IMG/VR virus record: IMGVR_UViG_3300029533_000034
Strand: one strand, 5' to 3'
From: a virus
Lineage: Duplodnaviria; Heunggongvirae; Uroviricota; Caudoviricetes
DNA length: 64,000 nucleotides
Shown here: in pieces, positions 11,632 to 43,130 of the stretch
Numbering within the stretch: position 1 is the first letter of the stretch
How the letters are laid out: the number at the start of each line of letters is the position of its first letter
Translations under genes and position numbers: made by a program
Notes under the pieces: model-generated
What the model was told of the DNA's origin: nothing
The model's input: only the letters and a program-made list of their open reading frames with translations
The model's database searches: none

Positions 11632-11866
11632 GTTGCACCCCGCAAGGGTGCAGGGTTGAAATATTATACTGAATCGTCGCTGCCTGCATAGATATAGTTG
11701 CATCCCTTATGGGATGTATGGGTTGAAATTCAATAGAAACAGATGCATTCGGAGGTGTTACAAGTTGCACCCCCGCAAGGGGTGCATGGGTTGAAAATAA
11801 GAAATGGTAGGAAGGAATTCAGATATGAACATTAGTTGCATCCCGCAAGGGGTGCAGGGGTGAAAT
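11632..11866 (+). CRISPR. CRISPR mini-array 1: 4 degenerate type I-C-like repeats (GTTGCACCCCGCAAGGGGTGCATGGGTTGAAAT), 3 spacers of 34-37 nt
   Basis: repeat/spacer periodicity read directly from the sequence. Confidence 0.8.
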
Positions 11867-12025
11867 AAAAGGATGTTGCCATATATGTCAACCAAACTCG
11901 GCTATTGAATAAATAACCGAGCATGATTTCTTCGGAACTGCTGAATCATGCAGTCTGACTGGTGAAGCGATGGTATACATATTTGAGCAAATTAAACAAA
12001 AATACAGAATCAGAGGAGAAATAAC

Positions 12026-12676
12026 ATGTCAAAAACAAAAGGACTATCAAAGAAGAAAAAATTACTAAAAACGCTCATGTATAAATGCCTTCCATTTAAG
12101 GTATTACTTATTGTCTTTTTATATGCAGTAATTGGATTTATTAACATTCCAATTAATAAATGGCTTAGTTTCAACTGGCAGAAATGGTCAGATGGGGAAT
12201 ATCATCCTTTTTTCGGTGCATTTTTTGTTCTTCCATTTTCTGAACTGTTAAGTTGTTTAATTGTGTTTGCTGTTATTTGCGCAGTTTATTATTTTGTCAG
12301 TGGAATAATCGCATATAGGAATTATTGTTACATCCCCCTTACAGAAAATGAAATCAGGAAAAAAGGATTCAGAAACGCAGATGAGTATTTTGCCTACGTG
12401 TGCGACATGTGTTCTTATGGTTTTAAAAATAATAAAGACTACATTCTTATTGGCGATGAAGACTTCCGAAAAATGTTAACTACCTGTCTGCAGGTATTTC
12501 CTGATAATGGGACAATTTTTGGAATAAACCGCCATATGGTACGAAATATCATATGGAATCCTGATTTTCTTTCCGCGCTTGCACTAGCCAGTGACCAAAG
12601 GGCGGAAATCATCAATGGACGTGTTGTATTGTCTGGCACCACAAAAGATGGTGACAGAAAAGAATATAAAATATAA
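12026..12676 (+). CDS. integral membrane protein
   Basis: AGGAGA RBS; several hydrophobic helices. Confidence 0.55.
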   Translation: MSKTKGLSKKKKLLKTLMYKCLPFKVLLIVFLYAVIGFINIPINKWLSFNWQKWSDGEYHPFFGAFFVLPFSELLSCLIVFAVICAVYYFVSGIIAYRNYCYIPLTENEIRKKGFRNADEYFAYVCDMCSYGFKNNKDYILIGDEDFRKMLTTCLQVFPDNGTIFGINRHMVRNIIWNPDFLSALALASDQRAEIINGRVVLSGTTKDGDRKEYKI

Positions 12677-12692
12677 AGCAAGGAGATATAAT

Positions 12693-12911
12693 ATGCCAAA
12701 GAAAGCATCAGAAACACCGGAGGTGCCATCATATATCCCTCCGGCAAGTGAAAAGGAAAAGATTATAGAAAAGATCCGAAAAAAAGGAATTGAATGCAAA
12801 CCGGATGGTACCGGGATTCCAATATTCGACACAAATGACCCGAAAGTAATGGACATGATCCGAAAAGAGATCAATGAACGTTTTTCGTTCGGATTTCATA
12901 TTCGTCCGTAG
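12693..12911 (+). CDS. small hypothetical protein
   Basis: AAGGAGA RBS before internal ATG. Confidence 0.4.
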   Translation: MPKKASETPEVPSYIPPASEKEKIIEKIRKKGIECKPDGTGIPIFDTNDPKVMDMIRKEINERFSFGFHIRP

Positions 12912-12920
12912 GAGGGATAT

Positions 12921-13448
12921 ATGATGGAAACAATAAGAGACTACGAAGCAATGGTATACGTACTTGAACACAACCGGAAAAGCGCCGGGACTGGAGAAAA
13001 TATCAGCTGGAAGAAAATATCATATGAAAAGTTAAGTAAAGAGATGAAAAGCTATACCGGACGGATTAAGCGTATGCTTGGAGAACTTATATTAAACGGA
13101 CGGATAGAGATTAAAACAGAACGTCCCTTTGTTTACCGTGTTCTTATTAAATCCGTGTTTACAGAAGAAGAATTTAAGAAATACCAGGATACCCGTCTTC
13201 TTGGAAAATTCCATGACTCATTATCAAAATTAACTGATACTGTGGAAACTGCTTCCGAAACAGTACAAGCTGTTTGGCGTCCAAGTGAAGCTATGCAGAA
13301 ACGCCAGACGGGTGCGGGGAATACGTTTGTGTATAGCAAAGCGAATTCTTTAAGCGTGCATGAGAGTTTTGAGCGGTCGAAGCAGGATAGAGAATATCGG
13401 CCGGCAGGAGAAAAGGCAGGAAAGAGAAAAGCTGTAACGATATGGTAG
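12921..13448 (+). CDS. hypothetical protein
   Basis: GGAGGG RBS. Confidence 0.5.
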   Translation: MMETIRDYEAMVYVLEHNRKSAGTGENISWKKISYEKLSKEMKSYTGRIKRMLGELILNGRIEIKTERPFVYRVLIKSVFTEEEFKKYQDTRLLGKFHDSLSKLTDTVETASETVQAVWRPSEAMQKRQTGAGNTFVYSKANSLSVHESFERSKQDREYRPAGEKAGKRKAVTIW

Positions 13449-13578
13449 TCGGCGTCCCGGCTGCTGGAAAGGAGTAACTTACAATGGGAAATTACACGGA
13501 AATTAACGTATGTTTTGATTTGTTTAAAAATACATCAGAGAAAATTCTTTTGGAAAGAAGAAATAAGAAGTAGAAAAT

Positions 13579-13761
13579 ATGAAGAAATATATCATTGCAT
13601 TTGGAGTTTCATTTTTTATTTTTTCGTTTTTGATTGTGTGTGGCATATTGCTGTTTGGACTACAATATGTGTTGCATACACCAGCCTTTACATATTTTTG
13701 TGTATTTGGCATGGCATTTGTTGTGTCCTGTGTTTGTGCATATGCTCAAAAGAGGAAATGA
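13579..13761 (+). CDS. small hydrophobic protein
   Basis: ORF; weak RBS. Confidence 0.3.
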   Translation: MKKYIIAFGVSFFIFSFLIVCGILLFGLQYVLHTPAFTYFCVFGMAFVVSCVCAYAQKRK

Positions 13762-13768
13762 TTTGCTT

Positions 13769-17117: not shown

Positions 17118-17121
17118 CATA

Positions 17122-19012: not shown

Positions 19013-19149
19013 ATTTTTATCATTTCAGGATGTCACGATTATAACGAAGCAAACAGAGGAATGGAGATTGGCTTTGGTATTTCTCTTATCCTCGCCCAAA
19101 TTGTTGTTACGTTGACATATCTGGCTTTTGGAGGTGTGTTGTAATTTCT

Positions 19150-19222
19150 TGCGGAGCAGAGCAGAGGAGGCTCACCGGGCTCATGACCTGGGTGTCGGAG
19201 GTTCGATTCCTTCCTCCGCAAT
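19150..19222 (+). tRNA. tRNA-Met/Ile2 (anticodon CAT)
   Basis: cloverleaf: acceptor tgcggag/ctccgca, D-stem gagc/gctc, anticodon loop cuCAUga, T-loop TTCGATT. Confidence 0.65.
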
Positions 19223-22763: not shown

Positions 22764-22964
22764 ATGGGATCAAAGGATTTTATTTTTTATTATTACATAG
22801 TTTGCGGAATATTATTGATGGTATATGGATTCGTGTTGATTGGCGGTTTTCTTAAAATGAAAAGCAACGATACTGGTGTGCCTTATCTAATAGTAGGTAT
22901 TGTTGAAATTTTTTTAGGTATTTTATTGATGTTTTTGTTGTGGAAAACAAAATTTGCTTATTAA
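22764..22964 (+). CDS. small membrane protein
   Basis: AGGAGA RBS. Confidence 0.4.
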   Translation: MGSKDFIFYYYIVCGILLMVYGFVLIGGFLKMKSNDTGVPYLIVGIVEIFLGILLMFLLWKTKFAY

Positions 22965-22986
22965 AAAAGTGATGGAGGAAAGATTA

Positions 22987-23373
22987 TTGAAGAAGAGAAT
23001 AGGAATGCTTACAGTAATTGGATGTATTTTTTTTAGTGGAATGTTTGTCGGTGGATGCAGAATGCCGGATACGGTTAAAGGAACATTGTCGTCAGATGGA
23101 ACTATCTATGATGTTGAGTCGTACAAGTTGAGTGGAGACGTTACGTTTCTTCCAATTTCTGTACAGAAGATTGATAACCACAGTGCAGAGTCGACTGTGA
23201 TTACAGAATTTGTTAATATCAAGGATAAGACGGTGTGGATGCAGTCGTACAAAGGATATTATCGGGCAGACAGTGGTGTTGGGCAGAGCATGGTTCAAGA
23301 ACTTGATCCGGATGGAAAACCGAAGCTGTATACCGGGGATATTAACGAACTGATCAAGAAGTTCCAAAAGTAA
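22987..23373 (+). CDS. lipoprotein (TTG start, lipobox VGGC)
   Basis: GGAGGAAAG RBS; the start context mirrors the 21971 gene; 3' end is duplicated at 43195-43340. Confidence 0.5.
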   Translation: MKKRIGMLTVIGCIFFSGMFVGGCRMPDTVKGTLSSDGTIYDVESYKLSGDVTFLPISVQKIDNHSAESTVITEFVNIKDKTVWMQSYKGYYRADSGVGQSMVQELDPDGKPKLYTGDINELIKKFQK

Positions 23374-27149: not shown

Positions 27150-27228
27150 GCAGCCAAAACACAGTTCCATATTCATGATATAGGACTGTGTTTTTTTGTA
27201 AGAAAATAAATAAAATTTTAAATTTCCT

Positions 27229-27265
27229 TTGACGAATTTTGAGATGGATAAATATATATACTGAA
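27229..27265 (+). promoter_or_regulatory. variant copy of the recurring promoter (TTGACG...GGATAAATATATATACT)
   Basis: -35 and spacing conserved; the GCGCAAT block has diverged. Confidence 0.4.
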
Positions 27266-30258: not shown

Positions 30259-30333
30259 TGTGTAAGAAAAGAGCCTTTGGACGAGGTTCTTTTTTTTATT
30301 TAAAAAAAATTTTCAAGAAATTTCTGATTTTCT

Positions 30334-30372
30334 TTGACGATTTTTCAAAAGGCGCAATATGTGTAATGAAGA
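30334..30372 (+). promoter_or_regulatory. recurring phage promoter, copy 5
   Basis: TTGACG...GGCGCAATATGTGT. Confidence 0.5.
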
Positions 30373-32970: not shown

Positions 32971-33027
32971 ATTGAAAAGGATCAAGCAGGACACGGTGTA
33001 AGTTTTTTAAAAGCTCTCTAAGCTTCT

Positions 33028-33066
33028 TTGACATTTCAGGAGATGGCGCAAGATGTATCATGTAAA
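33028..33066 (+). promoter_or_regulatory. recurring phage promoter, copy 6
   Basis: TTGACA...GGCGCAAGATGTATCATG. Confidence 0.5.
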
Positions 33067-33205
33067 GACCATAAACCGGGCTGCCAGGTTACCGGCTGGC
33101 AGAAAACTCTTTCGATATTTGTTTACGCTTCCGGGTAATACCCGGAAGGGATAGTTGGTTCGCAGCGTAAGCTGTTCCGGGTCCCATTCCCAGATATCCC
33201 TTTTT
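33063..33205 (+). ncRNA. structured ~140-nt RNA, family copy 3
   Basis: paralog; loop and stem substitutions preserve the hairpins. Confidence 0.55.
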
Positions 33206-33275
33206 CAAATGAAATTACAGAAAAGTCTGGCGTCGTCCACACGATTCGTGCCCGTGAGCAAAGAGAACAAAGGAG

Positions 33276-33343
33276 CACACCCGGAAGGAATCGAACCCTC
33301 GTTGGCGGTTTTGGAGACCACTTTCTGTCCATCAGACAGGTGT
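33276..33343 (-). tRNA. tRNA-Trp (CCA)
   Basis: minus-strand cloverleaf; T-loop TTCGATT; anticodon loop cuCCAaa. Confidence 0.6.
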
Positions 33344-33349
33344 ATATAG

Positions 33350-33439
33350 CGCAGACACCGGGGTTCGAACCCGGACAGCGGTTGTGCCGCATGCCACATT
33401 AGCAGTGTGGAGGGGTACCAGTTACCTTTATATGTCTGC
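33350..33439 (-). tRNA. tRNA-Ser (GCT), long variable arm
   Basis: acceptor gcagaca/tgtctgc; anticodon loop cuGCUaa; T-loop TTCGAAC. Confidence 0.65.
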
Positions 33440-33444
33440 ATAAG

Positions 33445-33516
33445 AGGCATCGGAGGGAATCGAACCCTCACCTTCCGGGTTGCAACCGGACGCCTTAGCC
33501 GTTTGGCTACGATGCC
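33445..33516 (-). tRNA. tRNA-Cys (GCA)
   Basis: acceptor ggcatcg/cgatgcc; anticodon loop uuGCAac. Confidence 0.7.
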
Positions 33517-33547
33517 ATATATGGGTTCCCCTGATAAGGGAGGAGAG

Positions 33548-33631
33548 CGCTGTGCCATGGATTCGAACCTTGACATTCTTTCGGGATGGCGGTTTTTAAG
33601 ACCGCTGCTTTCCCGGTTGAGCCAGTACAGC
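33548..33631 (-). tRNA. tRNA-Leu (TAA), long variable arm, two stem mismatches
   Basis: anticodon stem gcggt/accgc, loop cuUAAaa; T-loop TTCGAAT. Confidence 0.5.
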
Positions 33632-33875
33632 AAAAATAAAGGCACACACCTCTCAATTGAAAGATGTATGCCCCGTTTTCTTAAGTATTTCCTATATTTT
33701 CCCAGAAATTCCCCAGCAATAATCACATTTCTTTCAATTTGAGACGGTATTTACGAGCACGATAACTGCACCAGCTGCATGACTGCGGCTGACTGATACT
33801 TCTCTGTGGACACTGTCTCATTTCTGTTGTCATCATTGTTTTTCCTTCCTTTCCTTGAATTTTTTCAATATTAAG

Positions 33876-33949
33876 TGTGCCTGGTGGGACTTGAACCCGA
33901 CGACGCCACGATTAAAAGTCGCGTGCTCTGCCAACTGAGCTACAGGCAC
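33876..33949 (-). tRNA. tRNA-Lys (TTT)
   Basis: acceptor gtgcctg/caggcac; D-arm TAGCTCAGTTGGCAGAGC; anticodon loop cuUUUaa. Confidence 0.7.
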
Positions 33950-33954
33950 ATGAG

Positions 33955-34026
33955 CGGATCAGGAGGGAATCGAACCCTCGTTTTCCGGTAGACAGCCGGG
34001 TGTAATAGCCTTTATACTACAGATCC
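33955..34026 (-). tRNA. tRNA with GTC anticodon (Asp?); unusual T at position 37
   Basis: canonical T-arm GAGGGTTCGATTCCCTC; anticodon loop cuGUCua. Confidence 0.5.
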
Positions 34027-34030
34027 ATAA

Positions 34031-34103
34031 AGCTCCCGTCCGGCTTCGAACCGGAAACCTTCTGATTACAAATCAGATGCACTGCCAGTTGTGCTACAGG
34101 AGC
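34031..34103 (-). tRNA. tRNA-Thr (TGT)
   Basis: acceptor gctcctg/cgggagc; anticodon stem tctga/tcaga, loop uuUGUaa. Confidence 0.6.
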
Positions 34104-34108
34104 AGGAA

Positions 34109-34181
34109 CACTTCCGACGGGTGCTGACCCCGCTATCTCCGCCGTGACAGGGCGGTGACTCTGCTGTTTGTCCTCGGAAGT
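34109..34181 (-). tRNA. non-canonical tRNA-like gene with a perfect Asp anticodon arm (ccgcc-cuGUCac-ggcgg) but T-loop GTCAGCA instead of TTCGA
   Basis: acceptor acttccg/cggaagt perfect 7 bp; D-stem 3 bp. Confidence 0.4.
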
Positions 34182-34185
34182 ATAG

Positions 34186-34267
34186 TGCGCTGGGGAGGAC
34201 TCGAACCTCCGGTGTTTCTTTGTGGCTGATTTACAGTCAGCTGTCTTCGCCGCTGGACTACCAACGC
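34186..34267 (-). tRNA. tRNA-Tyr (GTA), long variable arm
   Basis: anticodon stem gctga/tcagc, loop cuGUAaa; T-loop TTCGAGT. Confidence 0.65.
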
Positions 34268-34272
34268 ATGAG

Positions 34273-34344
34273 CTGATCCGGAGGGACTCGAACCCTCAAC
34301 GCCCCGGTTAACAGCCGGGTGCTCTACCATTGAGCTACGGATCA
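34273..34344 (-). tRNA. tRNA-Asn (GTT)
   Basis: acceptor tgatccg/cggatca; D-arm TAGCTCAATGGTAGAGC; anticodon loop cuGUUaa. Confidence 0.7.
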
Positions 34345-34345
34345 G

Positions 34346-34417
34346 AGCATGTGACGGGTCTCGAACCCGCCCGTCCTGCTTGGAAGGCAGGTGTGCCGCC
34401 AACAACACTTCACATGC
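34346..34417 (-). tRNA. tRNA-Gly (TCC)
   Basis: acceptor gcatgtg/cacatgc; anticodon stem cctgc/gcagg, loop cuUCCaa. Confidence 0.6.
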
Positions 34418-34984
34418 ATACGGATAAAAGAAGTGCCTGTTTTCTCTTATCCATTCAGTTTTTTACCGCATCGCTGCGGAGTGGACAGGAGTGGTAATGA
34501 TCCACCCTGTAAGGATTTTCAGTCCCTCGCTAATCCATCTCAGCTACCTGTCCATGGCTTTTCTGCAATAAAAAAGCCGCATCAAGAAATTTTCCTTCTT
34601 TCTGCGGTCATCTGCGTTTTGCAATATTTCGGTTTTAAGTGCCTGGTTTAAAATCGAAATCGACCGCGGGAAGGTGTATCATAATAGTTCTGTCCCCATG
34701 TTTTCCCGGATTTTGAGCATGAGAAACTAAACATATTGCTGAAATCGCCGTATGTTCTACAATCATTATTAAAATTTTTACTGCTCATCATCTTTAACAT
34801 GGTTTTCTTTTCCTTTCATTTTAATTAATGCTGGATAAACAAAAAGCCCGTCACTTAACTCAAAGCTACACATTCAAATAGCTCTGAGTTAAAAGACAGG
34901 CACTTCTTTTATCTCATGAGCCTATCATATCATACTGATCGTGAAGTGTCAACAGGAAATTTGAAAAAATAAAACAAATAAAAA

Positions 34985-35635: not shown

Positions 35636-35718
35636 GATTTTTCTCCCTTCATCAATGGTTTTATTTACACTTTTAATATGAAATATTAAACATATTTCAA
35701 AAAATTTCCCGGAAATTT

Positions 35719-35757
35719 TTGACGAAATTTCAAAAGGCGCAATATATGTAATGAAAG
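35719..35757 (+). promoter_or_regulatory. recurring phage promoter, copy 7
   Basis: TTGACG...GGCGCAATATATGT. Confidence 0.5.
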
Positions 35758-35872
35758 GAGGAGGAAATACAAATTGGAATGTTTGACATGCAAGAAACAC
35801 TGATCGCAGGGAGGCCGCTGTTCAGAGAACGTGAGAAACTGCCTGCATTATGAGGAAGAACCAAGAGGAAAA

Positions 35873-36106
35873 ATGGTCCGGACAGAACTGTCTTTTCGTA
35901 TGGATGCAGAGGCGGAAACTCCGGTGGTCAGATTTGGAGAGAAAATACTGGTTTCCGATGGTTCAAAAGCGGTCGAGATGACTGTGATCAAGATCAACTG
36001 GGTTAATCTTCGGGATATGCTCTGCAATGTATCCGCGGATTATCATGAGAATGAGATGCCGCGATTTGAGAAAGAAAAGAAGTTCAATGTAGTTGAGAGA
36101 AAATAG
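35873..36106 (+). CDS. small hypothetical protein whose stop codon abuts a solitary CRISPR repeat
   Basis: AGAGGAAAAATG RBS. Confidence 0.45.
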   Translation: MVRTELSFRMDAEAETPVVRFGEKILVSDGSKAVEMTVIKINWVNLRDMLCNVSADYHENEMPRFEKEKKFNVVERK

Positions 36107-36136
36107 TTGTACCCTATGCGGTGCATGGGTTGAAAC
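36106..36136 (+). CRISPR. solitary CRISPR repeat unit (GTTGTACCCTATGCGGTGCATGGGTTGAAAC)
   Basis: single repeat with an intact hairpin and no adjacent spacer-repeat units. Confidence 0.5.
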
Positions 36137-36190
36137 TAAAGTCACATTTAACATGAAACAAAATTTTTTCAAAAACTTTCAAAATTCCCT

Positions 36191-36229
36191 TGACGAATCC
36201 CCAGATGGCGCAATATGTATCATGTAAAG
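36191..36229 (+). promoter_or_regulatory. recurring phage promoter, copy 8
   Basis: TTGACG...GGCGCAATATGTATCATG. Confidence 0.55.
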
Positions 36230-36365
36230 GTCATAAACCGAGCTGCCAGGGTTACCGGCTGGCAGAAATCCTTTCGATATTTGTTTACGCTTCCGGGGAA
36301 ACCCGGAAGGGATAGTGAGGACGCAGTGTAAGCTGTTCCGGGTCCGATTCCCGGATATCCCTTTT
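36227..36365 (+). ncRNA. structured ~140-nt RNA, family copy 4
   Basis: paralog of 8490, 11105, 33063. Confidence 0.55.
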
Positions 36366-36645
36366 AACTGCCGCAGGTGGTCTTCTCAAATTCAGCTGTC
36401 TGCGGCCTGTGGGATTTCCCACTGAACCAAAATAACGATAACCGCCAGAATTACAGCAGCGTGCGTTGGCGTGAGAACTATCGGCGCACAGGGATTACTC
36501 CTTTCATATTTATCTATCACACCTTTTCGTACATCGTATGGAGAGGCTGTGGAACAGCAGGTGCGTAGCCACGGGCTATTCCGGGATCGTTCCCCAGATG
36601 TTCCATTTTTAAAACATTAAAACAAATTACAGGAGGAAAATAGCG

Positions 36646-37368
36646 ATGGAAAAAGAAGTGGTATATGTCGCAGAACTGGATTCCGATGTTGACGATGTCG
36701 TTGCAGCAAATTACTTATATAATGAAGGGGTCTTAAAATGCGTAGTATGTGACCCATATCCAAGGACACCGGAGGGATTGGCACGAAAGGGAAAGCTGGA
36801 AGCGCTTGGCATCGATGTGGTTAAGAAAATGCCACCGGTTGCAAAATATGTGTTTGTTGGCGGCGCACTTACGGCTGTTGCTGGCTATATCCGGATGCAC
36901 CATGTCGACTGGCTGGTAATGAACGGAGGCTTTGTTGGAGCAAATATTGCGACCCTTGAACTGGATAAGTTCAAGGGGAAGAACACTGTCCGTACCTTCA
37001 ATTTCAACTGCGATGTTGTGGCTGCAGATACGGTTTTGAAAACTGATGAGAAGCATATTTCTCATATTGTTCTTGTTGGAAAGAACGTCTGCCACGATGT
37101 CCGGAATACGAGGAATGGTATCTGGAGTGGCGAGAAATACAAGAAATTGTTTGATGAGTACCGCGTTAAAGATGAGAAGCGTCAACATGACCTACTTGCC
37201 TGCCATGAGGGACTTGCATTCCTGCGGGGAACCAGTAAGATCTGCGAGTATGAGACAGTAAGGCCGTACAATACAGGTTTGAATGGCAAGCTGACACAGT
37301 GGGGCAGCACAAAAACTATGGAAACACCATATCGCGAAGTGCTTGCCGCTGTTGGCTATCGGGATTAA
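36646..37368 (+). CDS. nucleoside hydrolase (IunH/RihA-like) family protein
   Basis: N-terminal Asp cluster ELDSDVDDVVA, plus MNGGF...GAN...TFNFNCDVVAA...VL...HD, colinear with the IU-nucleoside hydrolase motifs DxDxxxDD, MGG..GN..EFN..DPEAA. Confidence 0.5.
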   Translation: MEKEVVYVAELDSDVDDVVAANYLYNEGVLKCVVCDPYPRTPEGLARKGKLEALGIDVVKKMPPVAKYVFVGGALTAVAGYIRMHHVDWLVMNGGFVGANIATLELDKFKGKNTVRTFNFNCDVVAADTVLKTDEKHISHIVLVGKNVCHDVRNTRNGIWSGEKYKKLFDEYRVKDEKRQHDLLACHEGLAFLRGTSKICEYETVRPYNTGLNGKLTQWGSTKTMETPYREVLAAVGYRD

Positions 37369-37370
37369 AA

Positions 37371-37679
37371 GTTACACTCCGCGAGGGGTGTATGGGTTGA
37401 AATTGAATAAATAATGCATCATAAGATATTCCAAATTGTTGCACCCCGCGAGGGGTGCAGGGATTGAAATAAAAGAACCTCTTCGATTCCCGAACACCCT
37501 TGTCTAGGTTGCACCTCGTAAGAGGTGTATGGGTTGAAATCCGGATCTGCTCTGCGGTTAGCATGGCACCACGTTGTTGCACCCTGCGAAGGGTGTATGG
37601 GTTGAAATGTGTTACCATTCCATCTTCTCCACGTCTAACTCTAGTTGCCCCCCCCCGCGCGAGGGGCGCATGGGTTGAA
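37371..37679 (+). CRISPR. CRISPR mini-array 2: 5 degenerate repeats, 4 spacers (34-37 nt); starts 2 nt after the stop codon of the hydrolase gene
   Basis: read directly from the sequence. Confidence 0.85.
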
Positions 37680-37789
37680 ATTGATTTACAGCCGGGGCAA
37701 GAAAATGTACGCTACAAAGTCCTTTCGCACCTGTCTTTTCTGTGGTATACTAAAAGAATAAAAGATATATCCAAGGAGAAGGTTAAAGG

Positions 37790-38662
37790 ATGAGAAAAAG
37801 CATAAAAGATTTTGGAAATTTTGTGAGAAAAGATAATTACCCGGGACTTCCGGAAGAACTGAAAGAGTTTAACTATTTTTTGAGTGATGGGGAAACTGGT
37901 CATGTAATCATGGCTGTGCCGGAACACAAGTTGGAGAAGGCGGAAGAAAAAGGGGATAATCTGGATGACTATGAATGTCCGGTTCCGGTGGCATATGTTC
38001 TTAAGAATGGGTACCGGCTGTATAAGGACCATGTAATATGTCAGGTTCCGTACGATGAGAAACTGGGGATACGTATTCCGGAAGAATATTACGAACCATT
38101 GATCATTTCTACAGATGCCGGGAAAGCAGAGGAGCCGACATCCGGAGAGTTCCCTTATGAGAAAGGAAAATGCTATCCGGAATTTACAAACCATGCAGAA
38201 GCTGTAGTTGCGGACATCGTTAAGGATTACGTGCAGATTCGCGTATTTTTCAAAAATCCTACAGAAAACGAGATTGCACAGTTTTCTCCGGATTCCAGAC
38301 TGGAAATCCGTTTTACAGAGATGGATGGGACCGGTCTGTTTACCGTCAAAGCTGGCAATTTGTCATGGATGGACGCACCATACCATGCGAAACTTGCAAA
38401 AGATTTGTCAGGATTCAATTTTACAGCAAAAGGTGAAATCCCACTGTATCTCCTCCTGATCGACTCGTCGATTGGTGAAGTTAAAGCGGTTCGAAATGTC
38501 CATCTGTCAGAAGAGTTTTCGGGAAAGTTGAGAAATCTGGTGGATCGTCAGATTAACTCTGATTTTGATAGGAAGAAATATGCTGATATCCTGTCCAATA
38601 TTTACCTTCTATTCGGTTCAGATGAGCTGGCGGATGCCAGTACCATTAAGTGCCAGTGGTAG
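37790..38662 (+). CDS. hypothetical 290-aa protein sandwiched between CRISPR arrays 2 and 3
   Basis: AAGGAGAAGG RBS. Confidence 0.6.
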   Translation: MRKSIKDFGNFVRKDNYPGLPEELKEFNYFLSDGETGHVIMAVPEHKLEKAEEKGDNLDDYECPVPVAYVLKNGYRLYKDHVICQVPYDEKLGIRIPEEYYEPLIISTDAGKAEEPTSGEFPYEKGKCYPEFTNHAEAVVADIVKDYVQIRVFFKNPTENEIAQFSPDSRLEIRFTEMDGTGLFTVKAGNLSWMDAPYHAKLAKDLSGFNFTAKGEIPLYLLLIDSSIGEVKAVRNVHLSEEFSGKLRNLVDRQINSDFDRKKYADILSNIYLLFGSDELADASTIKCQW

Positions 38663-38682
38663 GTAAGAAGATATACTTTACT

Positions 38683-38903
38683 GTTGCGCCCCATTGGGTG
38701 CATGGGTTGAAATCTGAAACCGAATAGATTGGATAGGACAGGCTGAGGTTGCACCCCGCGAGGGGCGTATGGGTTGAAATAGTCCGGACAATCAAAAACG
38801 ATATCGAAGAGCTGTCGTTGCACCCTGCGAGGGGTGTATGGGTTGAAATTGCAGAAAGATCAGGATTGGAAGGTTGCATCCTATGGGATGCATGGATTGA
38901 AAC
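38683..38903 (+). CRISPR. CRISPR mini-array 3: 4 degenerate repeats, 3 spacers (34, 36 and an unusually short 23 nt)
   Basis: read directly from the sequence. Confidence 0.8.
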
Positions 38904-38939
38904 GAACATATTTGTTATTATTTATTATTGAGATCAGAA

Positions 38940-38978
38940 AGGTCTGCAGTCAGTTAATCTGGCTGCAGATTTTTTTTG
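38940..38978 (+). terminator. rho-independent terminator (tctgcagtcag...ctggctgcaga + T8)
   Basis: inverted repeat plus T-run. Confidence 0.5.
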
Positions 38979-39006
38979 CAATTTTTCAAAAATTTTCCAA
39001 AATCTT

Positions 39007-39045
39007 TTGACGATTTTTTAAAAGGCGCAATATACATATTGAAGG
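39007..39045 (+). promoter_or_regulatory. recurring phage promoter, copy 9, directly upstream of cas5c
   Basis: TTGACG...GGCGCAATATACAT. Confidence 0.55.
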
Positions 39046-39086
39046 GATAAACAGGGGCTTGCCGCTGTTGATTACCAGAGTTAAAA

Positions 39087-39114
39087 GTTGTGCCCCTATG
39101 GGGTGCATGGGTAA
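39087..39114 (+). repeat. degenerate CRISPR-repeat-like element in the cas5c 5' UTR (GTTGTGCCCCTATGGGGTGCATGGGTAA)
   Basis: the 5' 24 nt match the repeat consensus; the 3' handle has diverged. Confidence 0.35.
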
Positions 39115-39126
39115 TAAGAGAAAGGA

Positions 39127-39801
39127 ATGGAAAAAGAAAAAATGGGAGTGAAACTAAAAGTCTGGGGAGATTATGCATTGTTCACCAGACCGGAACTGAA
39201 AACAGAACGGTATACCTATGACGTGATGACTCCGTCGGCAGCTAGGGGGATTCTGGAATCCATCTACTGGCATCCGGGATTACGGTGGTACGTAGATAAA
39301 ATCCACGTATTAAATCCGATTGCCACTACAAGCGTAAGAAGGAATGAACTTCTCAGCAAGATACCGAAATCAAATATGTTACAGGCATATAACGGCGGCG
39401 ATGTCAAGCTGTATAATTCGTCAAGAGACGATATTATCCAGAGGGCATCCGTGATCCTCCGTGATGTCAGCTACGTGATTGAAGCACATTTTGAAATGAC
39501 GGACAAGGCAAGCCCGACGGACAGCCCGGCGAAGTTTATCAGCATCTTTAATAACAGGGCAAGAAAAGGGGCGTGCTATTCGATGCCGTATTTCGGGGTA
39601 AGGGAATTTCCGGCACACTTTGAACTCTATGAAGGTGATGAAAAGATCCCATCCTGTTATGAAAGACTTCCGGACAGGGATTTCGGGCTGATGCTTTATG
39701 ACCTGGATTATTCCTGCGGAAGAGATATCCAGCCAATGTATTACCATGCAGTTATGAAAAATGGCATCATTGATGTCGGGAACAGTGAGGTGTTTCGATG
39801 A
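39127..39801 (+). CDS. cas5: type I-C Cas5c (Cas5d) crRNA-processing subunit
   Basis: N-terminal region VWGDYALFTRPELKTERYTYDVMTPSAARGILESIYWHP matches the Cas5d family signature. Confidence 0.9.
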   Translation: MEKEKMGVKLKVWGDYALFTRPELKTERYTYDVMTPSAARGILESIYWHPGLRWYVDKIHVLNPIATTSVRRNELLSKIPKSNMLQAYNGGDVKLYNSSRDDIIQRASVILRDVSYVIEAHFEMTDKASPTDSPAKFISIFNNRARKGACYSMPYFGVREFPAHFELYEGDEKIPSCYERLPDRDFGLMLYDLDYSCGRDIQPMYYHAVMKNGIIDVGNSEVFR

Positions 39802-41537
39802 TCCTGCAGTCACTTGTAAAATTATATGAAACGCTTGCAGACCAGGGGAAAGTATCCCGTCCCGGCTGGTGCAATGCAAAGGTATCCTATGCAGTGGTGT
39901 TAAACCACGATGGGATAATCCAGGATATTGTTTCCGTAAAGCAGGAGATACAGAGAGGGAAAAAAACTGTTGAAATTCCGACAGTTATGCAGGTTCCAGA
40001 GATGGTCACCCGGGGTAACAACATTGCTTCCGGCTTTCTCTGCGAAAATGCAAAGTATCTCTTTGGAATTGATGAGAAGATGAACCCGCGTACGCTTGAC
40101 TGTTTTAAAGCAGCAAGGAAGAAACATCTTGATATCCTTGATGTCGTGGATGAGTCGGCAGCACAGGCAGTGTGCCGCTTTTTCCGTTCATGGGATCCGG
40201 AACAGGCACTGGATCACCCGGCAGTTGCGAAGCTTGCGGAAAAGTTTTATAAAGGCGGGAACCTCGTATTTGAGGTAGACGGCAAATATGTGCATGACAA
40301 TGAGGCCGTGCGCAGAGCATGGCTGGATTACAGCAGCGTACCATATGAAATGGTAACAGGAAGATGCCTGGTTACCGGGAAGAAAGCAGAGATTGCCCGC
40401 ACACATGGGAAGGTCAAAGGAGTGCCGGGAACACAGTCATCCGGTGCGGCGCTTGTATCCTTTAACGGCGCGTCCCTTGAGTCTTATGAGAAAACACAAA
40501 GTTATAACGCGCCGATCAGCACCTATGCGGCGTATGCATATGTGACAGCATTAAATTACCTGCTTTCCACGGACGGGTACCACAGCAAGGTAGGAGATTT
40601 CATGGTGGTCTTCTGGACGGATTCCGGGGATGTGGATGATGTAAGCAGACTGCGGAAGATGATGGGGAGCGCCAATGAAAAAGATCATGTCCTTGCAGAT
40701 CCGGATGAAAAACTGTACGTGCTCTGTCTTGCACCGAATGCCGGCAGAATTGCAGTCCGGTTCTTCTATGAAGATGCCATCGGAGTGATCTGGAAGAACC
40801 TGTTGGAACATGCCCGCCGGATGATGATCATAAAGCCGGCGTTTGAGGATCAGGAATTCATCAATATCTGGCAGATGCTTATGGAGACGGTAAACCAGAA
40901 CCTTACAGACAGGACCCCGGTTCCGCATATGGCTGCGATGACGTTACAGTCGGTCATTTCGGATACCAAGTATCCGCAGAGCCTGTATGCAGGAGTGCTG
41001 TCCCGCATCCGTGCCGAGCACAAAGGCGTTACTTACAGAAAAGCAGCGGTCATCAAGGCTTTTTTAATAAAGAACTATAAATGGGAGGAAGGGAAAAATA
41101 TGGAAGTATTAAACGAAGACTGCAGAGACCGTGCGTATATCCTCGGCAGGCTGTTTGCGGTAATGGAAAAGACACAGAAGGAAGCAATTGATAACATCAA
41201 CCAGACGATCTGTGACAAGTTTTACAATTCCGCATGCACAACGCCAGGATCGGTATTTCCGGTGCTGATCAGACTGTCCAACAGTCATTTAAGCAAGCTG
41301 AAACGCACAAAGCCGGGCAGAGGATATTATTTTGCGGCTAAGATCCAAAGTTTGATGGGTCTGATTCCGGTTACAGCGGATGATCCGGGGTTCCCGAAGC
41401 GTTTCACGTATGAGGATCAGGGCAAATTCGCACTTGGTTATTACCACCAGATGCAGGCAGAATATACAAGCAATAAGTCAAAAGACAGCGATCCTGAAAG
41501 CAACCAGACAAATGCAGAGAAGATGGAGGAAAACTAA
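39798..41537 (+). CDS. cas8c: type I-C Cas8c (Csd1) large subunit
   Basis: N-terminus MILQSLVKLYETLADQGKVSRPGWCNAKVSYAVVL matches Csd1; ATGA start/stop overlap with cas5. Confidence 0.9.
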   Translation: MILQSLVKLYETLADQGKVSRPGWCNAKVSYAVVLNHDGIIQDIVSVKQEIQRGKKTVEIPTVMQVPEMVTRGNNIASGFLCENAKYLFGIDEKMNPRTLDCFKAARKKHLDILDVVDESAAQAVCRFFRSWDPEQALDHPAVAKLAEKFYKGGNLVFEVDGKYVHDNEAVRRAWLDYSSVPYEMVTGRCLVTGKKAEIARTHGKVKGVPGTQSSGAALVSFNGASLESYEKTQSYNAPISTYAAYAYVTALNYLLSTDGYHSKVGDFMVVFWTDSGDVDDVSRLRKMMGSANEKDHVLADPDEKLYVLCLAPNAGRIAVRFFYEDAIGVIWKNLLEHARRMMIIKPAFEDQEFINIWQMLMETVNQNLTDRTPVPHMAAMTLQSVISDTKYPQSLYAGVLSRIRAEHKGVTYRKAAVIKAFLIKNYKWEEGKNMEVLNEDCRDRAYILGRLFAVMEKTQKEAIDNINQTICDKFYNSACTTPGSVFPVLIRLSNSHLSKLKRTKPGRGYYFAAKIQSLMGLIPVTADDPGFPKRFTYEDQGKFALGYYHQMQAEYTSNKSKDSDPESNQTNAEKMEEN

Positions 41538-41538
41538 T

Positions 41539-42450
41539 ATGAGCAAACCGATTCAGAACAAATATGATTTTGTAGTATTATTTGACGTAGAGAATGGAAA
41601 CCCAAACGGCGATCCGGATGCTGCAAACATGCCAAGGGTTGATCCAGAGACCGGCATCGGTCTTGTGACAGACGCCTGCTTAAAGCGAAAGATCCGCAAC
41701 TATGTGGAAACAGCAAAGGAAGATGCAGACGGTTTCAAGATCTACATCAAAGAGGGTATTCCGTTGAACCGCAGCGATCTTAAGGCAATCGAAAACCTTG
41801 GTGTTGATGTTGATGACAGTAAGAAGGCACTTGAGGATGTCAAGAAACTGAAAAAGACCGATGAGAACGTAGACCTTAAGCTCCGTGACTATATGTGCAG
41901 CAACTACTACGATATCCGTACGTTCGGTGCTGTTATGACCACTTTTACAAAGGCGGCATTAAACTGTGGGCAGGTACGCGGCCCGGTACAGATTGGCTTT
42001 GCAAAAAGTATTGATCCTGTTTTCAGCCAGGATATTACTGTAACCAGAGTTGCGATCACAACCGAAAAGGATGCCGAAAAGAAGAACACCGAGATGGGAA
42101 GAAAGAGCATTATCCCTTATGGTCTCTACCGCGTGGAAGGATATGTTTCTGCCAACCTTGCCCGCAAGACCACCGGTTTTTCCGAAGATGATCTGGATCT
42201 TCTCTGGAAAGCCATCATCAATATGTTTGAAAATGACCATTCTGCAGCACGCGGGAAGATGGCGGTACGTGAGCTGATTGTATTCAGGCATGACAGCGAA
42301 CTCGGCAACTGTCCTTCCTACAAGCTGTTTGAAGCAGTTGATGTCAAGAAGAACGATGATGTCGAGTTTCCTCGCAAATACTCTGATTACACCGTAAAGA
42401 TCCATGAGGATGCAATCCCGGGTGGTGTGACGATGACGCGCATGATTTAA
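41539..42450 (+). CDS. cas7: type I-C Cas7c (Csd2) backbone subunit
   Basis: N-terminus MSKPIQNKYDFVVLFDVENGNPNGDPDA is the Csd2 signature; the ORF-track start at 41380 is an in-frame upstream extension. Confidence 0.9.
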   Translation: MSKPIQNKYDFVVLFDVENGNPNGDPDAANMPRVDPETGIGLVTDACLKRKIRNYVETAKEDADGFKIYIKEGIPLNRSDLKAIENLGVDVDDSKKALEDVKKLKKTDENVDLKLRDYMCSNYYDIRTFGAVMTTFTKAALNCGQVRGPVQIGFAKSIDPVFSQDITVTRVAITTEKDAEKKNTEMGRKSIIPYGLYRVEGYVSANLARKTTGFSEDDLDLLWKAIINMFENDHSAARGKMAVRELIVFRHDSELGNCPSYKLFEAVDVKKNDDVEFPRKYSDYTVKIHEDAIPGGVTMTRMI

Positions 42451-42470
42451 AAGTGCTTCCGGCAGCCACA

Positions 42471-42497
42471 AAGCAGCCCGTTTTTTGAGGGCTGCAC
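42471..42497 (+). terminator. terminator hairpin (gcagcccg-TTTTTTGA-gggctgc)
   Basis: inverted repeat with internal T-run just after cas7. Confidence 0.45.
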
Positions 42498-42698
42498 CTG
42501 CCGGTTGTATTGGGATGCCTGGTCCAGGTGCGAACCGGAGACGTACGTAGTTTCCAGAGGAGGTTCGCACGGGGGTGAGAAGGCGAGATGTACAAGAGAG
42601 CGAGAATCCCAACCACGGGAGGCAGTTGTGGATGGGTTAATTAGGGAAATTGTTTAATATTTTGGCGGACAGGAAACAGGTTTCCGTTCGCGTTTACA

Positions 42699-43130
42699 GT
42701 GGCGCCCGTGGAGGGGCGCATGGGTTGAAACAAATTAAAATGAGGAACACCATATTTTTCACGTTGTACCCCCCCCAACGAGGGGGGTACAAGGGTTGAA
42801 ATTCCTGTGGCAAATCCATAAACAGCGCGAGTTGCACCCCACAAGGGGTGCAAGGGTTGAAATAGAAGTGTAATGTAAAATCTCCATGCTCTATTCAGTT
42901 GCACCCCACAAGGGGTGTATGGGTTGAAATATATAAAAATGATGAATATGTAAAAATAAAAGAGTTGCATCCCTTATGGGATGTATGGGTTGAAATCACT
43001 GCTGCCCTTTGTATCTTCTCCGTGGTAAAACGTTGCATCCCTTATGGGTGCATGGGTTGAAAAGATTGTGACAAATCCATATCTTCGGGGAAGGTAGTCG
43101 CGCCCGCGAGGGGGTATATGGATTAAGGAA
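42699..43130 (+). CRISPR. CRISPR mini-array 4: 7 degenerate repeats (31-40 nt, last one decayed), 6 spacers of 28-35 nt
   Basis: read directly from the sequence. Confidence 0.85.

Follow-up and report, generated by a model that had tools for sequence, protein, structure and literature searches.

The stretch of DNA analysed here (64,000 nucleotides, hereafter the window) carries 20 type I-C CRISPR repeats, all on the + strand and oriented in the same way as the cas genes; they form four arrays of 4, 5, 4, and 7 repeats with 16 spacers, and the arrays surround an intact cas5c-cas8c-cas7 operon. The earlier note on this DNA had described four arrays with these repeat counts, which our search confirmed, and their assignment to type I-C is genuine, with cas5c, cas8c, and cas7 adjoining. 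The features are as follows:

11632–11866, +, array 1: 4 repeats, 3 spacers (34, 34, and 37 nt)
36106–36136, +, solitary repeat with full handle (covariance model 26.3 bits, E 0.0014)
36154–36372, +, promoter-like box (TTGACG ... GCGCAATAT), then a conserved ~150-nt structured leader RNA
36646–37368, +, cargo gene, 240 aa; weak, sub-threshold similarity to nucleoside hydrolase
37371–37681, +, array 2: 5 repeats, 4 spacers (34–37 nt)
37790–38662, +, cargo gene, 290 aa, phrog_12389
38683–38903, +, array 3: 4 repeats, 3 spacers (34, 36, and 23 nt)
38781–38816, +, spacer A3s2; target, a small HTH-like gene in Ca. Heliusvirales phages of Lachnospiraceae
38936–38976, +, strong intrinsic terminator (18-bp stem and T-run), closing the array-2/array-3 unit
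38971–39043, +, promoter-like box 5' of the cas operon (D2 family, 7 copies)
39087–39118, +, repeat-like hairpin with partial handle (ATGGGT), in the predicted cas5 5' UTR directly before the ribosome-binding site
39127–39801, +, cas5c, of the pre-crRNA endonuclease family (PF09704 9e-38, TIGR01876 3e-49)
39798–41537, +, cas8c (Csd1; PF09709 8e-161, TIGR01863 5e-116)
41539–42450, +, cas7 (Csd2; PF05107 4e-106, TIGR02589 3e-101)
42451–42698, +, array 4 leader, conserved across lineages (…AAATTGTTTAATATTTTG…TTTAC, then the first repeat)
42699–43127, +, array 4: 7 repeats, 6 spacers (28–35 nt), with a degenerate terminal repeat
43348–43376, +, intrinsic terminator, closing the cas/array-4 unit
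61222–61309, +, two repeat-like units, both degenerate, separated by a 27-nt spacer

A covariance model built from the repeats recovered 19 of the 20 (E 4e-10 to 2e-4), missing the degenerate terminal repeat at 43097, and nothing comparable was recovered on the - strand of the window. Pairs of repeats differ at 0–18 positions, not 3–8 as was thought before; adjacent repeats differ at 2–15 positions with no two of them identical, and A1.2 (11697–11729) and A4.5 (42964–42996) are identical repeats 31 kb apart. The spacers (23–37 nt) are unique, as had been described, except for A4s2 and A4s6, which have a 15-nt core in common. Beyond the four arrays, we noticed repeat-like units at 36106–36136, 39087–39118, and 61222–61309. 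The solitary repeat at 36106 overlaps by 1 nt with the stop codon of the ORF 35831–36106 and is kept in the lineages L013, L015, and L016, while L006 and L009–12 have a two-repeat mini-array. All lineages keep the hairpin at 39087–39118, and its stem shows a compensatory change in L015 and L016. The region 61222–61309, where the unit 61278–61308 matched the covariance model only marginally (E 0.14), is probably a decayed fifth mini-array.

When stem folding and covariation were tabulated, the proposal that the hairpin is kept by compensatory pairs gained statistical support. An uninterrupted stem of 6–11 bp is found in 17 of the 20 repeats, and A2.5, A3.2, and A4.7 have an internal mismatch. 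Among 22 distinct 33-nt variants, 91.5% of the cells were paired and both sides had changed in five of the eight stem pairs; the covariation score was reached by none of 500 shuffles, and pairing collapsed to 31–67% in shifted registers. The 48 distinct variants from all lineages gave 93.9% pairing and compensatory pairs at seven of the eight positions, values that are biased in favour of pairing by an alignment fitted to the structure of the model. As for the 3' handle, its claimed conservation holds in part: GGGTTGAAAT is exact in 13 of the 20 repeats and most of the others are one or two bases off, but A4.7 (43097–43127) is badly degraded.

Cas5c aligns over nearly its full length (residues 6–216 of 224) with Cas5c of D. 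vulgaris (8dex/7kha; E 6e-67), and the closest bacterial homologs of Cas8c, in Roseburia and Eubacterium, are ~50% identical. With dN/dS of 0.03–0.04 for cas5c, 0.08 for cas8c, and 0.05 for cas7 (start site adopted from gene calls in relatives) at a between-lineage dS of 0.5–0.9, the three genes are under strong purifying selection. Neither cas3 nor cas1, cas2, or cas4 was found among the large ORFs of the window or, in relatives, up to 10 kb from the cas genes; for the acquisition module, this agrees with the earlier note. The sole SF2 helicase (8621–10999) is RadD/HsdR-like and adjoins array 1, 28 kb from the cas locus.

Array 1 starts 39 nt past a small Zn-ribbon ORF (11251–11592), and arrays 2 and 3 start 2 and 20 nt past the stop codons of the cargo genes 36646–37368 and 37790–38662, respectively, just as claimed. 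The layout described previously also holds once a terminator is added: gene-array-gene-array-terminator-promoter-cas5/8/7-array. The unit holding arrays 2 and 3 is opened by the promoter/leader RNA region at 36154–36372, where the families D2–D4 occur, and since no terminator was found between the cargo genes and these arrays, their co-transcription, as was proposed, may reasonably be inferred. The cargo gene 36646–37368 keeps its position in all lineages (dN/dS 0.07–0.08); a homolog of 37790–38662, the product of which gave no match in a fold search, is present in a phage-like contig with no CRISPR.

The arrays had been considered to have no leader; nonetheless, ~250 nt in front of array 4 is kept in all lineages, most strongly beside the first repeat. 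Also, the view of the arrays as fixed guide sets is right for array 1 and for the window's own lineage but not for arrays 2, 3, and 4, the spacers of which vary between related lineages. Array 1 is identical in eight genomes of 216–382 kb; this invariance falls within a ~100% identical local block and therefore shows shared descent, not constraint. Across five near-identical copies (99.98% identity) from three cohorts, no array differs. Four contigs with identical Cas8c, yet, have three different spacer sets in array 4. Indeed, array 4 of sister lineages has cas7-proximal identical repeats with strain-specific spacers, and its distal spacers are shared and lie between degenerate repeats. The spacers r10_1 and r13_4, from two lineages, cover one and the same 28-nt stretch on opposite strands; this protospacer was sampled twice independently. 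All four spacers of array 2 are restricted to the window's lineage, relatives holding two degenerate repeats or one there. The second spacer of array 1 turns up elsewhere in relatives: the L006 lineage has it in array 3, and L022 where its array 4 continues. The last spacer of array 3 (23 nt) is kept in the window's, L006, and L013 lineages and is missing from the L015–17 lineage, which has no array 3; in L013, it is the only spacer of a mini-array that directly precedes the cas promoter. In L022, the "new" array-4 units are internal, not leader-proximal, and the join falls exactly at the identical repeat pair A4.5/A1.2. Spacer differences between lineages could come wholly from recombination with other arrays, including those of hosts, and not from acquisition on the element.

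Divergence of the repeats had been explained as a means to avoid recombination between identical repeats. Relatives, nonetheless, keep three to five identical tandem repeats, and the window itself has the identical pair noted above; such runs are tolerated, and selection for divergence against recombination is therefore unsupported. Divergent repeat variants are inherited jointly with old spacers across lineages, and the repeat heterogeneity fits age plus hairpin constraint, namely, old array units drifting.

Matches to the spacer A3s2 were found in eight Heliusvirales phage genomes (33/34 to 34/36 identities), where a TTC PAM directly precedes the protospacer. This suggests competition between phages. 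The A3s2 crRNA would pair with the template strand of the target gene, the weaker orientation for a transcription block in silencing by Cascade; as a single case, this orientation does not settle cleavage versus silencing. The other 15 of the 16 spacers gave nothing convincing in annotated phages, plasmids, and IMG/VR, and no self-target was found within the window. For the 23-nt spacer, TTC-flanked partial matches in the cas promoter, the rest of the window, and two Lachnospiraceae I-C loci were no better than shuffled ones (best 15/23, null 12–16), and the IMG/VR search gave no match. The bacterial systems closest to this one are complete I-C loci of Lachnospiraceae, in which the handle is similar; in a Faecalimonas MAG, a repeat differs from the window's consensus by 1 nt. 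No structural phage genes were found in the window, and the label "phage" is therefore one that we infer.

The class to which this locus belongs is already known as the type I-C variants of huge phages (Al-Shayeb et al. 2020, Nature 578:425, PMC7162821). Shared with those are a phage-like genome of very large size, a Cascade of the Cas5d type from which Cas1, Cas2, and Cas3 are absent, compact arrays (median 6 repeats there), spacers against competing phages, and the proposal that host Cas proteins are used or that targets are silenced without cleavage. Our locus differs in that no helicase gene substitutes for cas3 beside the other cas genes, and we saw no second, CasΦ-like system in the window; moreover, its four arrays are dispersed and accompanied by solitary units, arrays abut the stop codons of cargo genes, and the repeats are strongly heterogeneous. 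Canonical bacterial I-C systems (the Roseburia locus L024; D. vulgaris Cascade, 7kha and 8dex) have the same order of Cas5c, Cas8c, and Cas7, a 32–33-nt repeat with a GC-rich hairpin and the …GGATTGAAAT handle, a TTC PAM, and spacers of 33–37 nt; the bacterial locus, however, has cas3 upstream and cas4-cas1-cas2 downstream, all four of which the element lacks, and a single long array of 40–42 identical repeats, whereas several short arrays with repeats up to 18 edits apart are found here. The type IV-A3 systems of plasmids likewise belong to class 1, lack a nuclease and an adaptation module, and serve a mobile element against its competitors; as PMC11656645 recounts from Benz et al. 2024, they acquire spacers in trans with the type I adaptation module of the host, which is the best precedent for the spacer turnover here. 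According to that account, theirs is another CRISPR type (Csf proteins, DinG helicase) on another kind of carrier, and silencing has been demonstrated there. The type I-F system of Vibrio phage ICP1 is likewise of class 1, encoded by a phage together with arrays of its own, and involved in mobile-element conflicts (PMC11656645), but is complete with an adaptation module and Cas2-3, and its target is a host defence island instead of another phage. Viral mini-arrays (Faure 2019 and Medvedeva 2019, as cited in PMC11656645) are, as here, short with spacers matching other viruses, and solitary repeats occur in viral genomes as Racrs (PMC10651486; PMC11656645). In the description given by these sources, they lack cognate cas genes and use repeats identical to those of the host, whereas a cognate Cascade is encoded alongside here and the repeats differ from the nearest host-type repeat found.

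It is unlikely, in our view, that the guide sets are fixed and inherited with no acquisition, and that selection against recombination between identical repeats drove the divergence with Cas5c processing kept. The invariance of array 1 in the eight genomes and of all arrays in the five copies, the window without identical adjacent repeats, and the L022 join at the one identical pair would be consistent with this; furthermore, the presence/absence polymorphism of spacers in relatives concentrates at identical repeats and units between divergent repeats are stably kept, so that divergence may in effect stabilise the units. Nonetheless, variation of arrays 2–4 is leader-polarised, the leader is conserved, a protospacer was sampled twice independently, and runs of three to five identical repeats persist in sister lineages; the block around array 1 reflects common descent, and divergent repeats travel with old shared spacers as age alone predicts. 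We give a still smaller chance to CreR/CreA-type crRNA-like RNAs, a role in which the mini-array with the 23-nt spacer just before the cas promoter, the 5' UTR hairpin, or both would adjust expression of the cas genes of the element itself, or silence genes of the host, rather than attack other phages. Elements of this kind occur widely in type I loci (PMC10120712), and retention of the 23-nt spacer in three of the four lineages, its position before the cas promoter in L013, and the compensatory change in the conserved hairpin are suggestive, but its matches at the level of shuffled ones, the empty IMG/VR search, and the L015–17 lineage missing array 3 altogether argue otherwise.

Also improbable is an RNA anti-CRISPR or decoy, by which the repeats, above all the single units at 36106 and 39087, would mimic the host I-C repeat and soak up host Cas proteins without guiding the element's own Cascade. 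While solitary viral repeat units are known as Racrs, the handle resembles Lachnospiraceae I-C repeats, and the Faecalimonas MAG has a near-identical repeat, a conserved Cascade is encoded beside the arrays, the 16 spacers are real ones of canonical length, one with a PAM-flanked phage target, the stems are unlike those of the Roseburia repeat (GTCGCTCCCC…), and the unit at 39087 has no TTGAAA handle and is located in the cas5 5' UTR. Least credible of all would be decaying relics of a captured bacterial I-C locus with its function gone, for which the degenerate repeats, the loss of cas3 and the adaptation genes, the badly degraded terminal repeat, and the remnants at 61222–61309 might speak; such decay hardly accords with strong purifying selection on cas5, cas8c, and cas7, a hairpin maintained by compensation, fresh identical-repeat units in sister lineages, and a PAM-correct match to contemporary gut phages.

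In conclusion, we consider it probable (roughly 70%) that the locus is a maintained type I-C system, lacking its nuclease and adaptation module, which acts mainly against rival phages, and that its carrier is a phage-like element, huge in size (at least 382 kb), of Lachnospiraceae in the human gut. The arrays would be transcribed on the + strand, arrays 2 and 3 as the 3' part of the cargo-gene transcript and array 4 after the cas operon, following its leader; judging from homology and covariation, Cas5c would cut each repeat at the base of the conserved hairpin. Cascade (Cas5c-Cas8c-Cas7) loaded with crRNAs would then bind TTC-flanked protospacers, with one target, in Ca. Heliusvirales phages, matched so far. 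Inactivation of the target would, in the reading that we prefer, depend on Cas3 supplied in trans by a type I-C host or by the remaining ~320 kb of the element, with binding-only silencing as a close alternative; recruitment of host Cas3 is uncertain, as Cas8c is only ~50% identical to Lachnospiraceae Cas8c. The guide sets are not frozen: array 4 in sister lineages would gain cas7-proximal spacers and also lose spacers, presumably with adaptation proteins supplied in trans, and units would also be swapped by recombination between arrays. The window's lineage seems to have had no recent spacer gain, and its repeats are hence considered to be old units that drifted apart with the hairpin and handle kept by selection, while the peripheral arrays 1–3 and the solitary repeats would be older and largely inherited.

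Twenty repeat units, all on the + strand, were found in the window, with agreement between searches by repeat, by profile and by covariance model. The covariance model recovered 19 of these 20 (E from 4e-10 to 2e-4) and gave no match comparable to them on the - strand. All three procedures reproduced the four arrays of 4, 5, 4 and 7 repeats that the earlier note had read by eye from this DNA; these arrays contain 16 unique spacers of 23-37 nt, and additional repeat-like units occur at three other sites, one of them the hairpin before cas5 at 39087-39118.

CRISPR repeat units of the window
11632-11866, + strand: array 1, 4 repeats
36106-36136, + strand: solitary repeat, overlapping a stop codon
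37371-37681, + strand: array 2, 5 repeats
38683-38903, + strand: array 3, 4 repeats
42699-43127, + strand: array 4, 7 repeats
61222-61309, + strand: two degenerate repeat units, extra to the four arrays

The consensus, GTTGCACCCCGCGAGGGGTG(C/T)ATGGGTTGAAAT, has the layout of a type I-C repeat; namely, ~32-33 nt in which a GC-rich stem-loop leads into a handle of 11 nt with …TTGAAA(T/C) at its end. The repeats had been described as differing from each other at 3-8 positions with a conserved 3' handle. They do differ, but over a pairwise range of 0 to 18 positions, with the second repeat of array 1 (A1.2) and the fifth of array 4 (A4.5) being identical, and the handle GGGTTGAAAT is exact in only 13 of the 20. 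Three repeats have an internal mismatch in the stem. Also, A2.5 (37644-37681) and A4.2 (42763-42802) contain long C and G runs whose length varies by +/-1 nt between otherwise identical assemblies, which could reflect either slippage in homopolymers or errors of sequencing; the stem of A4.2 reaches 11 bp through expansion of its two arms.

The idea that the hairpin is kept by compensatory pairs is borne out, and the examples first put forward for it are genuine (A-U to G-C and C-G to U-A, with wobble intermediates). Among 22 distinct 33-nt variants, 91.5% of the stem cells are paired and both sides have changed in five of the eight pairs; the covariation score was reached by none of 500 shuffles, and sliding the 3' arm by 1-3 columns lowered the pairing to 31-67%. 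With 48 distinct variants from all lineages, 93.9% of the cells are paired and seven of the eight pairs are compensatory, albeit in an alignment that was fitted to the model structure and favours pairing.

The cas5c (39127-39801), cas8c (csd1; 39798-41537) and cas7 (csd2; 41539-42450) genes form the effector set of type I-C in its usual order. Their products score far above the curated cut-offs of Pfam and NCBIfam and have homologs in the PDB (8dex and 7kha); residues 6-216 of the 224 in Cas5c align with the “pre-crRNA processing endonuclease” of D. vulgaris. In type I-C, which lacks Cas6, Cas5c is the endonuclease of pre-crRNA, and no Cas6 family is among the families reported for the window ORFs. 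Between the window and L013, a relative's locus, dS is 0.74 in cas5 and 0.50 in cas8c but only 0.09 in cas7, and recombination within the locus is therefore common, with breakpoints inside the cas operon. The nearest bacterial Cas8c proteins, from Roseburia and Eubacterium, are ~50% identical, and such a bacterial locus is ordered cas3-cas5-cas8-cas7-cas4-cas1-cas2 with 40-42 identical repeats (GTCGCTCCCCTTGTGGGAGCGTGGATTGAAAT). No relative of the Cas8c was found in IMG/VR.

The nuclease and the adaptation genes were sought in the window and in the relatives. Among the genes called up to 10 kb from cas8c, no relative had a cas3, cas1, cas2 or cas4, and neither Cas3_HD, Cas3_C and Cas3-like_C_2 nor the Cas1, Cas2, Cas4 and Tn7-like families were matched among the families of 43 other large ORFs of the window. 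In the window and the relatives' 10-kb flanks, the locus has neither Cas3 nor the cas4-cas1-cas2 module of type I-C, while both cas3 and cas4-cas1-cas2 are present in the bacterial comparators (the type I-C loci L008 and L024, the latter from Roseburia). The only helicase (8621-10999, 792 aa) is an SF2 protein with ResIII and Helicase_C domains that adjoins array 1 and not the cas locus. We regard it as an unlikely substitute for Cas3: it is RadD/HsdR-like, and its C-terminal 423 aa contain no recognisable domain; this part (420-423 aa) matched nothing in Pfam, the PDB or among diverse homologs, and no homologs of it were detectable beyond the element. The helicase gene is always just upstream of a small Zn-ribbon gene and array 1, and an exact-protein look-up of the helicase and of ORF 11251-11592 returned no record. 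The 290-aa protein encoded between arrays 2 and 3 was rejected as an effector: a homolog occurs without CRISPR, and its model (pLDDT 70.5) gave no fold match at E < 0.3.

Turnover of the arrays was followed in relatives of graded distance, the Cas8c proteins of which are 98% (L015-17), 92% (L013) and 88% (L006/L009-12) identical to that of the window. Identical arrays are present in five near-copies of the window (99.98% identity), which come from three cohorts. Eight long genomes share an unaltered array 1, but we rejected this invariance as a sign of selection because those genomes are ~100% identical throughout the surrounding block. The other arrays differ between the lineages: array 2 is down to one or two degenerate repeats, and array 3 has other spacers in L006/L009-12, a single 23-nt spacer in L013 and is absent in L015-17. 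Array 4 holds ~24 different spacers in all across these lineages; its cas7-proximal part has 3-5 identical repeats with strain-specific spacers in L013/L016/L017 and L006/L009-12, and its distal spacers, common to lineages, lie between the degenerate repeats that flank them in the window too. Furthermore, four contigs with identical Cas8c carry three different sets of spacers, and the spacers r10_1 and r13_4, from different lineages, span the same 28 nt on opposite strands, as is expected from independent acquisitions. A leader of ~250 nt, conserved most strongly beside the first repeat, precedes array 4 in every lineage.

These results are at odds with the proposal of the earlier note that the arrays are fixed, inherited guide sets with no leader, although copies identical to the window are indeed invariant. 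Its further proposal, that the repeats diverged under selection against recombination, is weakened by the runs of identical repeats in the relatives. The presence/absence polymorphism of spacers is, however, concentrated at identical repeats, and repeat divergence may therefore stabilise the units as a side effect. The second spacer of array 1 (A1s2) is also found in array 3 of the L006 lineage and, in another relative's locus (L022), in an extension of array 4 that is attached through the repeat common to A4.5 and A1.2. We rejected this junction as the ancestral arrangement because it was not seen in eight long contigs; either rare recombination or a join made in assembly at the 33-nt repeat could have produced it. 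Between array 4 and the terminator behind it, 43247-43339 is a 93-nt gene fragment that duplicates, at 86% identity, the 3' end (23281-23373) of ORF 22954-23373, which suggests a past rearrangement at the distal end of the array.

As for the targets, 5'-TTC is the protospacer-adjacent motif of type I-C. The second spacer of array 3 (A3s2, 38781-38816) matches, at 33/34 to 34/36 bases, a gene for a 110-aa protein with weak similarity to HTH regulators in eight Ca. Heliusvirales phages, whose recorded hosts are Coprococcus, Agathobacter, Dorea and Lachnospiraceae. TTC lies directly 5' of this protospacer in both phage genomes inspected, and the motif is thus seen for a single spacer. When the spacers were concatenated and compared with annotated phages and plasmids, A3s2 alone was matched and plasmids gave no match, and the remaining window spacers had no convincing target there or in IMG/VR, which was scanned with TTC-prefixed or core spacer patterns. 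Candidates L026-L029 were dismissed because their matches ran over only 17-20 of 28-33 nt beyond the forced seed, as was L030, which matches at 29/33 but without TTC; self-targeting was set aside since no spacer matched elsewhere in the window or the loci. Judging from their sequences, A4s2 (42803-42830) and A4s6 (43064-43096), which have the core TGTG(G/A)CAAATCCATA at the same 3-nt offset, seem to be a pair of guides for allelic variants of a single target site.

In the opposite direction, 66 unique Roseburia spacers had no convincing match to the element (the best, 19/20 nt with E 0.002, was to L015). The exact leader-proximal repeat was not matched in bacterial genomes, and a relaxed pattern hit there only a Caulobacteraceae array and one array-end repeat, without visible cas genes, in a Faecalimonas MAG. 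The latter repeat (GTTGCACCCCGCGTGGGGTGCATGGGTTGAAAT; L021, CAYLRF010000017.1, 4639-4671) is at the contig end and one loop base off the window consensus, and the adjoining 4.6 kb neither resembles the window nor shows cas genes; this Lachnospiraceae MAG is possibly a host or a donor of the repeat type.

Two transcription units are predicted around arrays 2-4, in agreement with the succession of gene, array, gene, array, promoter, cas genes and array recognised at the outset.

Predicted transcription units and RNA features of the window
Unit 1, + strand: promoter box 36154-36226, structured leader, gene 36646-37368, array 2, gene 37790-38662, array 3, terminator 38936-38976
Unit 2, + strand: promoter box 38971-39043, 5' UTR hairpin, cas5-cas8-cas7, 248-nt leader, array 4, terminator 43348-43376
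11034-11106, 27193-27265, 30298-30370, 35683-35755, 36154-36226, 38971-39043 and 43389-43461, + strand: promoter-like box, at least seven copies
8444-8622, 11060-11250, 33018-33210 and 36180-36372, + strand: conserved structured RNA of ~150 nt, four copies directly downstream of the promoter-like box
39087-39118 (~9300-9340 in the relatives' loci L015 and L016), + strand: repeat-like hairpin in the cas5 5' UTR, just before cas5

Array 2 begins 2 nt past the stop codon of 36646-37368 and array 3 begins 20 nt past that of 37790-38662; the terminator of unit 1 is strong, and from array 2 to the next gene, the sole promoter-like sequence matches the sigma-70 pattern weakly (9/12 positions, 37724-37751). 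It is plausible from this layout that the arrays would be co-transcribed with the cargo genes. The promoter-like box (TTGACG, ~12 variable bases, GGCGCAATATGT) precedes gene blocks, was missed by a generic sigma-70 scan and may represent an element-specific class of promoter. Each copy of the ~150-nt RNA has three hairpins, the last of which resembles a tRNA T-arm (TTCCGGGTCCGATTCCCGGA) and is followed by a U-run, and two copies head the units ending in arrays 1 and 2/3. No Rfam family was matched at the gathering score, and the Y RNA of Deinococcus was matched only weakly, in its tRNA-like part (28 bits, E 0.006); the ~150-nt RNA could be a leader/antitermination RNA, a Y-RNA-like sRNA or a riboswitch.

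All lineages retain the hairpin in the cas5 5' UTR, and its stem shows a compensatory change (TGTGCCCC/GGGGTGCA versus TGCATC/GATGTA). The hairpin precedes ATGG(G/A)T and a ribosome-binding site; it is a candidate site for binding or cleavage by Cas5c in autoregulation. A broader conjecture, which we regard as improbable, is that hairpins recognised by Cas5c have been co-opted as signals for RNA processing and regulation: Cas5c would control its own expression by cleaving or binding the cas5 5' UTR, the repeats 0-20 nt past the cargo stop codons would provide mRNAs with hairpin-capped 3' ends and couple cargo expression to Cascade, and the type I-C adaptation proteins of the host, working in trans at the phage leader, would extend the array behind cas7.

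Regarding the element itself, the identical Cas8c is indexed in 88 blocks with contigs of up to 267 kb, and close variants and neighbouring genes are on contigs of 216-382 kb from human-gut metagenomes, with JAKSHK010003121.1 (382 kb) and JAKSHD010002554.1 (356 kb) among the long ones. Several hundred public contigs encode this Cas7 or Cas8c, and in the assembly collection 535 index blocks contain one neighbouring protein. Genes for 11 tRNAs and for numerous DNA methyltransferases lie in the window, along with many PHROG families. Ten tRNA genes are clustered at 33275-34553 on the - strand, opposite to almost all other genes; the features at 19149-19222 and 53089-53190 are a tRNA-Met and a 102-nt match to tRNA in Rfam only, maybe with an insertion. 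No close relative was found among annotated phages, save for a 380-bp stretch 91% identical to Roseburia phage Jekyll. The element is probably a huge phage of Lachnospiraceae; no capsid, terminase or tail genes are within the window, and it may instead be a megaplasmid.

The locus is best explained as a type I-C Cascade that is maintained, lacks a nuclease, brings its own guide arrays and serves in conflicts with other phages for the same hosts. A single array would grow behind the leader, presumably by means of host type I-C adaptation proteins acting in trans, and would be surrounded by older, mostly inherited mini-arrays; inactivation of a target without a local Cas3 might be achieved by Cas3 in trans or by binding-only silencing. 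The window's lineage shows no recent spacer gain, and the heterogeneity of its repeats is that of old units under the constraint of hairpin and handle, for which selection for divergence is not needed.

This account was weighed against fixed guides with selected divergence, non-functional relics, Racr-type decoys, CreR-type regulators and a CAST. Guides without turnover would suit the copies identical to the window but not the lineages beyond them. Relics might be suggested by the degenerate repeats, but cas5c, cas8c and cas7 have dN/dS of 0.03-0.08 between lineages at dS of 0.5-0.9, and the system is therefore maintained. Decoys of the Racr type would mimic the host's repeats with no cognate cas genes, but a Cascade is encoded alongside, and the stems of the window repeats are not the same as that of the nearest Lachnospiraceae repeat recovered; the solitary units alone might conceivably serve as Racr. 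A spacer of the CreR type would partially match, beside a PAM, a cas or toxin promoter of its own locus. The 23-nt spacer was considered for this role or for silencing in the host and rejected for both, because no match exceeded the shuffled controls in the window and Lachnospiraceae I-C loci: its best TTC-flanked match (15/23, shuffled range 12-16) is in the window away from the cas promoter, and none was found at that promoter or at the host I-C loci. A CAST was rejected as there are no tnsB, tnsC or tniQ (Tn7-like) families in the window or the relatives' gene tables, where the only transposase is an IS110-family insertion in some copies. This insertion (4473-5735 in the loci L001 and L002) is missing from the window, its point being ~35757 there, and is polymorphic among otherwise identical copies just upstream of the solitary repeat and the array-2 unit.

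Type I-C variants without Cas1, Cas2 and Cas3 and with compact arrays are known from huge phages, whose spacers are directed against competing phages with possible use of host Cas proteins or silencing (Al-Shayeb et al. 2020, PMC7162821). The window shares these absences and the compact arrays. The variant resides in phage genomes of >200 kb, and the window's genes are on contigs of 216-382 kb, albeit with no structural genes within the window; in the variant a helicase replaces Cas3, whereas the window's SF2 helicase (8621-10999) is beside array 1 and not at the cas locus. For the adaptation in trans proposed for array 4, plasmid type IV-A3 systems, described in PMC11656645 as acquiring spacers via host adaptation proteins, are a precedent. 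Since viral mini-arrays, solitary repeats and repeat-like regulators have also been described (PMC10651486, PMC11656645 and PMC10120712), the locus belongs to a described class and is a useful case, not a new category. In a limited comparison with the literature, we found no description of arrays abutting cargo stop codons, of a covarying repeat-like hairpin in the cas5 leader or of mosaic turnover among lineages.

The locus is thus a well-resolved and very prevalent human-gut example of huge-phage CRISPR without nuclease and acquisition genes. Its graded relatives show that such arrays still turn over, that spacers move between arrays and that old units keep a processable hairpin via compensatory change. 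The cas5-leader hairpin and the arrays fused to cargo 3' ends could reveal Cas5c-dependent control of mRNA, which is cheap to test, and the A3s2 target ties the element ecologically to Ca. Heliusvirales, a widespread order of gut phages and a likely competitor in Lachnospiraceae hosts.
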